Assembly: GCF_030013595.1 (NCBI RefSeq) | Contig: NZ_CP122768.1 | Strand: one strand, 5' to 3' | Length of the DNA stretch: 64,000 bases | DNA from: Escherichia coli | Lineage (GTDB): Bacteria > Pseudomonadota > Gammaproteobacteria > Enterobacterales > Enterobacteriaceae | Part shown: one piece after another, positions 55,694-61,871 of the stretch | Numbering within the stretch: position 1 is the stretch's first letter | Layout: every line of letters starts with the position of its first letter | Translations under genes and position numbers: made by a program | The notes under the pieces: model-generated | What the model was told of the DNA's origin: nothing | The model's database searches: none | The model's input: the letters and a program-made list of their open reading frames with translations, nothing else

Positions 55694-56392
55694 TTATCGC
55701 GGGAAAAAGTACTTTACCTGGAACTCGAAAATATTGCTGTAAAGTAACGAATAATCCAGCGGAATAGAGTTACTGTCCACAGCCTGGGTCTGAATTTTAA
55801 GTATGGGATCCCGTGGGCTGATCCGTAAAATACTGGCGATTTCTGGGGTAGGAAAAGTAGGGGAGAAAGTTTCAAAGGTGCCAATGATTTTGATCCCGCA
55901 TTCGTTCTCAATATACGAAAATTTGGATTTTTGCATATGTGCTACGGTTAAATCAGGAAAACGTGCCACTGACATCCACGTTTCTTCTAATTGTGCTGCA
56001 TTATCCTCAATGAATCGCAGTCTCTTTATGTAATAAACCTGCTCACCAGTCACTAAATTCAGCTCAGTCGCAATAGGGGGAGAAGCATCCTGCACTTCAA
56101 ATTTCATAATCTGACTTCCTGCCTCCTTGCCGCTTTTATGCGCAATTTCACTGAAGCTGTTCATGTGATCAATGTGTGCAACAAAATTCTTTTTTTGAAT
56201 ATATGTTCCTGAACCATGCTTTCTATGAATAATTCCTTCGCCTTCCAGCAAGGATAATGCCTTACGCAGGGTATTACGCGAAACATTATAACGAACAGCG
56301 AGTTCAGCTTCTGACGGCAACAAATCACCAACATGCCATGAATAGCCATTGATCTCGGATTTAAGTAAGCGGGCAATCTTTTGAAAAATCAC
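55694..56392 (-). CDS. GntR-family regulator (HTH plus UTRA-like effector domain)
   Basis: 232 aa; GntR HTH (ELAVRYNVSRNTLRKALSLLEGEGII); divergent from a PTS operon. Confidence 0.8.
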   Translation of the reverse strand: MIFQKIARLLKSEINGYSWHVGDLLPSEAELAVRYNVSRNTLRKALSLLEGEGIIHRKHGSGTYIQKKNFVAHIDHMNSFSEIAHKSGKEAGSQIMKFEVQDASPPIATELNLVTGEQVYYIKRLRFIEDNAAQLEETWMSVARFPDLTVAHMQKSKFSYIENECGIKIIGTFETFSPTFPTPEIASILRISPRDPILKIQTQAVDSNSIPLDYSLLYSNIFEFQVKYFFPR

Positions 56393-56590
56393 TTTTGCAC
56401 CTTTTAAGAGCCATTGAAAACAAGGAGTTGAGTCCTGATTGGTTTATCGTATGGCCGAGTCGTTTAATTATTACCCTGATGTTGAACAACTTTATTGCTG
56501 TATTACTGTGATCAATGTACCAGGACGTATAGCTACTGCGGGATATGATATTTACACAATGTAATCTGTTATATACCAGTAAGGGAAAAT

Positions 56591-56902
56591 ATGAAAAAGA
56601 TATTGTTAGTTTGCGCTGCGGGCATGTCAACCAGTATGCTGGTTAAACGTATGATTGATCATGCTAACGCTATTTCACTTGAAGTTAATATTTCCGCATT
56701 GGCGATTGCAGAGGCTAAAGGGAAAATTAAAAATAACGAAGTTGACGTTGTTTTACTTGGCCCGCAAGTTCGCTTTCAGAAACCAGAGATTGAAGCTGTT
56801 GCACAGGGGAAAATGCCTGTAGCTGTTATCGAGATGAAAGACTATGGCACCATGAACGGACAGGCAGTTCTTGAATTTGCGATGAAACTACTGCAAGAGT
56901 AA
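56591..56902 (+). CDS. PTS enzyme IIB, lactose/cellobiose family
   Basis: 103 aa MKKILLVCAAGMSTSMLVKRM... with catalytic Cys in CAAGMSTS. Confidence 0.85.
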   Translation: MKKILLVCAAGMSTSMLVKRMIDHANAISLEVNISALAIAEAKGKIKNNEVDVVLLGPQVRFQKPEIEAVAQGKMPVAVIEMKDYGTMNGQAVLEFAMKLLQE

Positions 56903-57016
56903 GAATCTAATATTATTAAACTATTACCTGAACTAACTTTTCACACATCATAAAATGGATATGGCATACATGCTTTATTGGGATGTATAAATATCCAGAA
57001 CAACAGGTATAAAAAA

Positions 57017-58678: not shown

Positions 58679-58733
58679 TTTTTTCCTCCAGTGCGATAGC
58701 TGGAGGAAATTATTACACTCTTAAGGATAAGTC

Positions 58734-60407
58734 ATGAATATAAAGACGATTAACGTCAGCCTTTTGTCTTTTTCTATTATTACAGCATTGTTTCCGTTGA
58801 ACGCGTTGGCAACAAAATTAACCATTGAGCAGCGCCTTGAACTGCTTGAAAATGAATTGTCGCAAAATAAACAAGAGCTGAGAGCAACACAGAATGACCT
58901 GGGGGTATATAAATCCCGACTTTCGACCTTACAAAAAAGTATTACGGAAAATAAATACAAATCAGCCTCACTTGCTGAAATATCAGCGACATCTCCCGTC
59001 GCTGATAACATCAAAAATGAAAACGGTGAACAGAACTCGTCTGCCGCAGCGCATACTATAAATGGATCGCAGCAAGTTGCCGTTATTGAAAGTAAAGGCG
59101 ACAAAACCACTATCGAAAGCGTGACCCTGAAAGATATCAGTAAATATATAAAGGATGATATTGGGTTCAGCTATCAGGGGTACTTCCGCTCAGGCTGGGG
59201 TACCGGAAATCATGGCTCACCACAAACTTATGCAGCGGGTTCTCTGGGACGTTTTGGTAACGAGATGAGCGGTTGGTTTGACTTAACCTTAAATCAGCGT
59301 GTTTATAATCAGGACGGTAAAACGGCAAATGCGGTCGTTACCTATGATGGCAACGTAGGTGAGCAGTATAACGATGCCTGGTTTGGTGACAGTGCCAATG
59401 AAAATATCATGCAGTTCAGTGATATTTATCTGACAACGCGAGGTTTTTTACCCTTCGCGCCAGAGGCAGACTTCTGGGTAGGCAAACATAAACTCCCGCA
59501 ATATGAGATCCAAATGCTGGACTGGAAAACCTTAACCACGGATGTCGCTGCGGGTGTGGGGATTGAAAACTGGGCACTTGGTGTAGGGCTGTTTGATATG
59601 TCCTTAAGCCGTGATGATGTCGATGTTTACTCTCGTGATTTTACGCGTACCAGTCAGATGAATACCAATTCTGTGGATGTTCGTTATCGCAATATCCCGT
59701 TATGGGATGATGCAACATTATCATTAATGGCTAAATATTCCGCACCAAATAAAACGGATCAACAACAAGATAATGAAAATGACGACAGTTATTTTGAAAT
59801 GAAAGATAGCTGGATGCTGACTTCTGTTTTACGGCAAAACCTGCAACGCGATACGTTTAATGAATTTACGTTACAGGTTGCCAATAATTCCTATGCCAGC
59901 AGTTTTGTCAGTTTCTCAGATGCCAGTAACACGATGGCGCATGGTCGCTATTACTATGGTGACCATACCAATGGGATCGCCTGGCGTTTAATCTCTCAGG
60001 GCGAGATGTATCTTACTGACAATATTATTATGGCTAACGCGCTTGTCTATTCTCATGGCGAAGATGTTTATAGTTATGAAAGTGGCGCTCATAGTGATTT
60101 TGACAGTATTCGCACCGTAGTAAGACCGGCCTGGATCTGGAATACATGGAATCAGACGGGGCTTGAATTAGGCTGGTTTAAGCAACAGAACAAAACACAG
60201 CAGGGTGTAACACTAAATGAATCGGCTTATAAAACGACACTCTGGCATGCATTGAAAGTGGGTGAAAGCATTTTAGGTTCACGACCAGAAATTCGCTTCT
60301 ATGGCACGTATATCAATATTCTGGATAACGAATTATCTAATTTTAAGTTTAATGAGAACAGCAAAGACGAGTTTATGGCCGGCATCCAGGCGGAAGTCTG
60401 GTGGTAA
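58734..60407 (+). CDS. Carbohydrate-selective outer-membrane porin (ScrY/BglH/LamB-like) with N-terminal coiled-coil extension
   Basis: Signal peptide [26 protein letters not shown], coiled-coil-like segment, aromatic-rich beta-barrel body ending in W. Confidence 0.75.
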
Positions 60408-60431
60408 TCTATTTTAGTTAAGGAGTTGTGT

Positions 60432-61871
60432 ATGTCAGGATTTAAAAAAGGTTTTTTATGGGGTGGCGCGGTAGCCGCGCATCAGTTGGAAGGTGGCTGG
60501 AATGAAGGAGGAAAAGGCATCAGTATCGCTGATGTGATGACTGCTGGTGCTCACGGGGTGCCGCGTGAAGTGACAGAAGGCATTATCGACGGGCTTAATT
60601 ATCCCAATCATGAAGCAATTGATTTTTATCATCGCTATAAAACAGATATTCAGTTATTTGCCGAGATGGGATTCAAATGCTTTCGAACTTCCATTGCCTG
60701 GACACGAATCTTTCCGCAAGGTGACGAACAGGAGCCGAATGAAGAGGGTTTAAAATTTTATGATGATCTGTTCGATGAATGCCTGAAGCAGGGAATGGAA
60801 CCTGTGGTGACGCTTTCGCATTTTGAGATGCCTTATCATCTGGTGACAAAATATGGTGGCTGGCGAAACCGTAAACTGATCGACTTTTTCATCCGCTTCG
60901 CATCAACGGTCTTCACGCGCTATAAAGAAAAAGTAAAGTACTGGATGACGTTTAACGAAATCAATAATCAGGTGAATTTCAGCGAAAGCCTGTGTCCATT
61001 TACTAATTCCGGTATCTTGTATTCGCCAGAGGAAGATATCAATGAGCGCGAACAAATAATGTACCAGGCGGTACATTACGAGTTAGTTGCCAGTGCCCTG
61101 GCGGTACAGACTGGAAAATCGATCAATCCTGAATTTAATATCGGCTGTATGATCGCCATGTGCCCCATCTATCCTCTGACGTGTGCACCCAACGATATGA
61201 TGATGGCTACGAAAGCGATGCATCGTCGTTACTGGTTTACTGATGTTCATGCTCGTGGATATTATCCGCAACATATGCTGAATTACTTTGCCAGGAAAGG
61301 ATTCAACCTCGATATCACACCAGAAGATAACGCGATTCTTGCCAGAGGTTGTGTCGACTTTATCGGCTTTAGCTACTACATGTCTTTTACTACGCAATTT
61401 TCGCCAGATAACCCGCAACTGAATTATGTTGAACCACGAGATTTGGTCAGCAACCCTTATATCGATACATCCGAATGGGGATGGCAAATTGATCCGGCAG
61501 GGCTACGTTATTCACTCAACTGGTTCTGGGATCATTTCCAGTTGCCGCTGTTTATTGTCGAAAATGGATTTGGTGCGGTTGACCAGAGACAAGCTGACGG
61601 CACGGTGAACGATCACTATCGCATTGATTACTTTGCTTCCCATATTCGGGAAATGAAAAAAGCCGTTGTTGAAGATGGTGTTGACTTAATTGGCTACACA
61701 CCGTGGGGCTGCATTGACCTGGTTTCTGCCGGAACAGGGGAAATGAAAAAACGCTACGGAATGATTTACGTCGATAAAGACAACGAAGGGAAGGGAACGC
61801 TGGAACGGATACGTAAAGCGTCGTTTTACTGGTATCGGGATCTCATCGCCAACAATGGCGAAAATATTTGA
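60432..61871 (+). CDS. 6-phospho-beta-glucosidase (glycoside hydrolase family 1)
   Basis: [16 protein letters not shown]-terminus, TFNEIN acid/base and IVENGFG nucleophile motifs; ATG 6 nt after AGGAG. Confidence 0.9.

Follow-up and report, generated by a model that had tools for sequence, protein, structure and literature searches.

The locus at positions 55694-61871 of the Escherichia coli DNA analysed here (a stretch of 64,000 nucleotides from contig NZ_CP122768.1, below called the window) is very probably the bgc locus of E. coli for the use of beta-glucosides, in an intact and ordinary form. It would thus consist of the regulator gene bgcR and the operon bgcE-F-I-H-A, equivalent to genes c1960 to c1955 of strain CFT073. 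The identification follows from gene content and order, the divergent GntR-type regulator gene and the map position between eamA (ydeD) and marB, all of which are the same as in CFT073 c1955-c1960. The bgc locus has already been named and experimentally characterised, and the chief consequence of this finding is correct annotation.

Gene families were assigned with Pfam and NCBIfam, with all scores above the curated cut-offs. Five genes on the plus strand, separated by gaps of 21-114 bp, encode the IIB, IIC and IIA subunits of a phosphotransferase system (PTS), a porin and a phospho-beta-glucosidase. The first gene, bgcE (56591-56902), encodes the enzyme IIB (EIIB) of the lactose/cellobiose family (PF02302, 5.7e-19). 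It is followed by the genes for the EIIC permease of 440 residues (57017-58339, bgcF by order; TIGR00410, 336.7 bits, cut-off 236) and the EIIA of 103 residues (58367-58678, bgcI by order; PF02255, 1.2e-31). Downstream are bgcH (58734-60407), which encodes a LamB-family outer-membrane carbohydrate porin of 557 residues (PF02264, 1.8e-81, 275 bits), and bgcA (60432-61871), which encodes a glycoside hydrolase family 1 (GH1) 6-phospho-beta-glucosidase of 479 residues (NF007154, 1034 bits, cut-off 624). The regulator gene bgcR (55694-56392, minus strand; CFT073 c1960) adjoins the operon divergently. Its product is a GntR-family protein of the HutC/UTRA subfamily, with a GntR (PF00392, 8e-19) and a UTRA (PF07702, 6e-30) domain.

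All six open reading frames (ORFs) are present and intact in the ORF list of the window. Since all six protein sequences also occur verbatim in public databases, the genes are both intact and common. The starts of the genes for IIC (57017), IIA (58367) and GH1 (60432), as well as that of eamA (54750), were chosen by the RefSeq annotation of CFT073; the mechanically called starts are too long by 2-13 codons in these four genes (IIC 56978-58339, IIA 58361-58678 and GH1 60426-61871 in the mechanical list).

In CFT073 the gene order is marB (c1954), a 6-phospho-beta-glucosidase (c1955), a LamB-like, yieC-like porin (c1956), IIA (c1957), IIC (c1958), IIB (c1959), a PhnF/GntR-type regulator (c1960) and ydeD, i.e., eamA (c1961), and c1955-c1960 are marked as missing from K-12 (Bryant et al. 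2010, supplement, PMC2831201). These six genes are the sole six-gene cellobiose-type PTS set in the published listing for CFT073. Compared with them, the locus in the window has the same content, order, divergent regulator, marB-ydeD/eamA position and absence from K-12. There is no substantive difference; the two alleles are 97.2% identical at the nucleotide level, with the promoter region the most diverged. In the literature, bgc is an operon of five genes whose products include the IIB, IIA and IIC subunits of a PTS as well as BgcA, a phospho-beta-glucosidase, and BgcR is its GntR-type positive regulator (PMC3585215). It is one of four cryptic beta-glucoside operons in E. coli, together with chb, asc and bgl (PMC4488073).

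The characterisation of bgc (bgcR, bgcEFIHA) as a cryptic system for cellobiose, arbutin and salicin was reportedly the work of Neelakanta, Sankar and Schnetz in 2009. That study is reported to place the porin BgcH in the operon, to describe dependence on CRP and activation by a promoter point mutation, and to find bgc prevalent in B2 strains and present in Escherichia albertii.

The three PTS proteins belong to the Lac/Chb family, with separate IIB (PF02302), IIC (PF02378/TIGR00410) and IIA (PF02255) proteins in which the catalytic Cys and His are kept. They align with solved structures of the ChbB, ChbC and ChbA types: the EIIB with PDB 2l2q and 1iib, the EIIC with PDB 3qnq (4e-57) and the EIIA with ChbA, PDB 1wcr (1e-21). 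In the EIIB, the active-site Cys8 lies within VCAAGMSTS; the EIIC has GIHG (253) and NINE (340) motifs conserved with ChbC; and His76 of the EIIA lies within an HAQDH motif. The roles of these residues are those established for the chitobiose PTS. The IIC stays under the NCBIfam equivalog thresholds of both the cellobiose model (336.7 against 434) and the chitobiose model (279 against 760), and its specificity is therefore not assigned by NCBIfam.

BgcH has a signal peptide, a coiled-coil-like N-terminal extension and a low-complexity linker. From the signal peptide and the extension to the C-terminus, it is 53% identical to K-12 BglH, and the extension barely passes as PF11471 (Sugarporin_N), at 25.8 bits where 25.7 are required. 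ScrY (PDB 1a0s) is reached from BgcH by a 15-sequence profile (E = 2e-8), while a search of the single sequence against PDB gave no match even at E <= 10.

BgcA retains the acid/base Glu176 (TFNEIN at 173), the nucleophile Glu377 (IVENG at 375) and, at 432, the Ser/Lys/Tyr motif that binds the 6-phosphate. It aligns over its full length with PDB 3pn8 (801 bits, 69% amino acid identity), and the nucleophile E-to-Q mutant PDB 4f79 aligns with it at ENG. BgcA is 51% identical to K-12 BglB; that it is nearer to Gram-positive enzymes than to the E. coli BglB suggests an old inter-phylum transfer. Within the glucosidase gene, window positions 60452-60979 show 72% nucleotide identity to an Enterococcus faecalis plasmid segment. 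The porin and the glucosidase have been put in one 90%-identity protein database cluster of 14022 members, probably because a fused or read-through gene call entered the clustering.

Judged from these residues and families, the parts are predicted to form a complete pathway of uptake and hydrolysis. The original prediction, made from the letters of the window, had proposed exactly these parts: a GntR regulator, a PTS IIB-IIC-IIA of the lactose/cellobiose family, a ScrY/BglH-like porin with an N-terminal coiled coil, and a GH1 6-phospho-beta-glucosidase. The subfamily of the regulator, the order and family of the PTS genes, the similarity of the porin to BglH (with ScrY at the profile level) and the two catalytic Glu residues and phosphate motif of the enzyme bear it out, and the six intact genes provide the full set that it called a complete locus.

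The BgcH porin would admit cellobiose or aryl-beta-glucosides (arbutin, salicin) through the outer membrane. A phosphoryl relay would then run from HPr to His76 of EIIA, to Cys8 of EIIB and on to the sugar during its translocation by EIIC. BgcA would hydrolyse the 6-phospho-beta-glucoside to glucose-6-phosphate and glucose or the aglycone. A weak promoter within the AT-rich 198 bp between bgcR and bgcE would drive transcription, which would need cyclic AMP-CRP, bound at a class II-type site, as well as the activator BgcR. In the literature the operon is described as cryptic, with a silent phenotype until a promoter-up mutation occurs, and as working at low temperature. In this scheme the substrates, the activation by BgcR and the crypticity are taken from the literature, while gene content, intactness, residues, distribution, synteny and the promoter footprint come from the present analysis.

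The divergent regulatory region (56393-56590, plus strand) has 36% GC and is the most AT-rich segment. It was aligned between 13 species. A candidate CRP site, TGTGATCAATGTACCA, is found at 56507-56522 on the plus strand, with a perfect left half-site and two mismatches to the consensus. All 13 orthologous promoters that were aligned, from Escherichia to Erwinia, share the core CTGTGA(T/C)C without variation. A candidate -10 hexamer, TATGAT, can be read at 56544-56549 on the same strand and is conserved in Escherichia only. It would place the candidate CRP site near -41.5, i.e., in class II geometry, and a good -35 element is absent; such a geometry fits a weak, activator-dependent promoter. 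Further conserved blocks at about 56455-56486 could be an operator for BgcR. A convincing palindrome was sought in these blocks and not found. This regulatory region is also the segment most diverged from CFT073: it has 8 differences over 198 bp (96.0% identity), two of them downstream of the candidate CRP site and ahead of the -10 box.

The locus shares features with two other E. coli systems. With bglGFBH, the aryl-beta-glucoside operon of K-12, it shares the logic of a porin, a PTS and a GH1 enzyme (BglH 53% and BglB 51% identical), and both loci are AT-rich and cryptic. However, bgl has a fused EIIBCA of the Glc family (BglF) and the antiterminator BglG, where the present locus has separate Lac/Chb-type IIB, IIC and IIA proteins and a GntR-type regulator. 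The PTS family and the separate IIB, IIC and IIA subunits are common to chbBCARFG, the operon for N,N'-diacetylchitobiose and cellobiose, and structures of the ChbA, ChbB and ChbC type are the best structural relatives. The remainder of chb is different: it contains the AraC-type ChbR, the GH4 enzyme ChbF and the deacetylase ChbG and has no porin, in contrast to the GntR regulator, GH1 enzyme and dedicated porin found here, and the IIC is far under the chitobiose equivalog cut-off. The GH1 enzymes of lactic acid bacteria (PDB 3pn8, 4f66 and 4f79, which we take to be Streptococcus mutans enzymes), at 69% identity, have the same catalytic and phosphate-binding residues as BgcA, but they are found in Gram-positive operons without a porin.

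To see how widespread the locus is, an island query of 6278 bp was compared with 5426 complete E. coli genomes, counting a match at >=80% coverage. The full island is present in 2493/5426 genomes (46%), at 97-99.6% identity, and an intact empty junction of the K-12 type in 2484/5426; genomes with neither are rearranged. The locus is accessory but common, a roughly 50:50 presence/absence polymorphism across the species. In K-12 MG1655 only 30 bp separate eamA and marB, so the original prediction was right that these genes are adjacent there. The conclusion drawn from this, that the locus is strain-specific accessory content, holds in its second half: the locus is accessory, with K-12 empty and the island in 46% of complete genomes, but not strain-specific, as it occurs in 2493 of the 5426 genomes and also in E. 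albertii. Thus, it is not a core locus found in K-12 and most E. coli either.

CFT073, UTI89 and PMV-1 carry the island, as does E. albertii. A published synteny table lists it as present in CFT073, UTI89, B171, E24377A, E22, B7A, E110019, 53638, HS and SMS-3-5 and as absent from F11, 536, E2348, O42, K-12, O157:H7 and Shigella strains. The pattern cuts across pathotypes and phylogroups, and the locus is not mainly a trait of B2 or extra-intestinal pathogenic E. coli. One strain (NZ_AP027822.1; 2670-3139 of our locus L001) has lost the DNA between the middle of eamA and the final 82 bp of the glucosidase gene, which illustrates that decay of the locus continues. The reading of this site as an empty one that retains a GH1 remnant, so that K-12 would have arisen by deletion, was rejected, as it is a secondary eamA-to-bgcA deletion in one strain. 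In the same sequence, an IS1A insertion separates mgtS from ydeE.

Orthologous loci were collected by a porin scan of species-representative genomes together with a synteny map. In E. albertii the same six genes abut marB-marA-marR. Longer contigs that encode the very IIB protein of the E. albertii type strain have eamA on the other side, an EamA ending in ...KVRG* and the right-hand hairpin as in E. coli. Signs of decay are seen in this species: one locus (L038) is without called porin, glucosidase and marB genes, a second (L040) is without a called porin, and a third (L039) is without the IIA gene and has a porin truncated to 380 residues. All six genes are also found in this layout in Citrobacter and Salmonella enterica subsp. 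diarizonae, but with different neighbours. In Kluyvera, Raoultella, Enterobacter, Cedecea, Buttiauxella and Ewingella the arrangement is regulator-IIB-IIC-(IIA)-porin, and some of these six genera have the glucosidase gene upstream on the opposite strand; near the Kluyvera and Raoultella clusters, no glucosidase gene was detected.

Compared with K-12, the indel spans from about 55640 to about 61878/61927 and includes the last approximately 10 nucleotides of eamA, as the alignment to K-12 ends at nucleotide 890 of 900. EamA thus ends in ...KVRG* in the island allele and in ...KVGS* in K-12. The last three eamA codons of K-12 together with its 30-bp spacer resemble a shortened homologue of the right-hand spacer of the island. 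These junctions fit either a deletion or an insertion at about nucleotide 890 of eamA.

Several points weigh against the identification of the locus as bgc. It rests on the unique architecture, on secondary citations and on the reported findings of the 2009 study, not on a sequence comparison with the published bgc locus of strain i484. The name Bgc stands on none of the public annotations of these exact protein sequences, which carry generic names only. One source gives BgcF as IIA and BgcI as IIC (PMC3585215), which conflicts with the order IIB-IIC-IIA if the names follow gene order; the assignment of bgcF to IIC and bgcI to IIA, made here by order, is uncertain. The CRP consensus is not enriched in the window, with 207 matches at <=3 mismatches against about 241 expected; a consensus match alone is no better than chance, and the informative part is the cross-species footprint. 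It could be that the locus is a related but distinct PTS locus of the Lac/Chb family, with another beta-linked disaccharide as the substrate, for example gentiobiose, sophorose, laminaribiose or fragments of mannobiose/glucomannan, as for the GmuR-regulated genes of Bacillus subtilis. The scores of the IIC under both the cellobiose and the chitobiose equivalog cut-offs would agree with this, as would the likening of the regulator to GmuR in PMC3585215. However, the architecture (GntR regulator, IIB, IIC, IIA, porin and phospho-beta-glucosidase) matches exactly, and CFT073 has no second listed set of this kind with which bgc could be confused. Apart from the gene in bgl, no further BglH-type porin gene of E. 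coli is known. The presence of the locus in CFT073 and UTI89, which are uropathogenic strains, and in E. albertii also agrees with the distribution reported for bgc. We regard a distinct locus as improbable.

A second question is whether the bgc locus could be a mobile genomic island, acquired recently and repeatedly by site-specific insertion beside eamA. The island has 42.6% GC against 49.4% in the rest of the window, which would fit such an acquisition, as would its patchy distribution among strains and the orthologous clusters in other contexts (Citrobacter, S. enterica subsp. diarizonae, Kluyvera, Raoultella and others). Given its AT-richness, the island is probably of foreign origin. However, deviant GC content is the only hallmark of a mobile element that was found: the ORF list shows no integrase or transposase in the island, and there are neither flanking direct repeats nor a transfer RNA gene. 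The junctions are identical across E. coli lineages and E. albertii. Further, the island genes are 96.0-98.4% identical to those of CFT073 and the flanking core genes 96.3-99.1%, which shows that the island has diverged together with its surroundings. Carriage by plasmids was rejected too, as the hits are either mislabelled chromosomes of 4.8-4.9 Mb or non-mobilizable fragments; the PLSDB entries NZ_CP134663.1 (4.9 Mb) and NZ_OL790696.1 (4.8 Mb) are evidently chromosomes and would, if taken literally, give a false plasmid-borne signal. Recent and repeated mobility is therefore already largely refuted and has hardly any probability left. The bgc island is not a mobile element but a self-contained, chromosomally fixed accessory operon. 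The site common to E. coli and E. albertii favours a long residence, and the operon has probably been lost, or replaced through homologous recombination in the flanks, in about half of E. coli.

From the fixed site, the absence of mobility genes, the equal divergence of island and flanks and the same junctions in E. albertii, it can be speculated that the near 50:50 ratio of presence to absence is an ancient trans-species polymorphism under balancing selection, and not a cryptic operon drifting to loss. We consider this unlikely.

Both ends of the island are marked by hairpins between convergent genes. On the left, the core flank eamA (54750-55649, plus strand; NCBIfam NF008523, 630 bits) is separated from bgcR by an inverted repeat with 19-nucleotide arms at 55648-55694 (-22.6 kcal/mol, z = -4.2). 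On the right, a hairpin with a 12-bp stem at 61897-61922 (-23.3 kcal/mol, z = -4.9) lies between bgcA and the core flank marB (61928-62146, minus strand; PF13999, 5e-35; NF007508, 138 bits). Both are putative bidirectional terminators. A generic promoter and terminator scan gave counts not above those of shuffled sequences, and it missed both boundary hairpins because these are without T-runs.

Elsewhere in the window, the Rfam family STnc560, an Hfq-binding small RNA, matches at 52939-53152 on the plus strand (280 bits, E = 1e-64) between dgcZ and ydeE, where the K-12 annotation has the mgrR/mgtS/mgtT region. Going by how the best-matching genomes are annotated, prophage tail genes (a tail fibre N-terminal domain and a gpJ-like tail tip) lie at about 36000-45000, upstream of dcp/ydfI/ydfJ. 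Among complete genomes, the closest match to the full length of the window is 98.5%.

The six genes deserve the labels bgcR and bgcEFIHA in place of generic names (PTS sugar transporter, carbohydrate porin). The original picture of bgc is also updated by the counts: it is found in about 46% of complete genomes, in several phylogroups, and E. albertii has it at the same site. Beside the mar locus, it thereby provides a clean case of a presence/absence polymorphism that is old and non-mobile. If balancing selection does maintain it, the benefit of using beta-glucosides in the environment or in extra-intestinal sites would be set against the cost of an extra porin exposed to phages or colicins.

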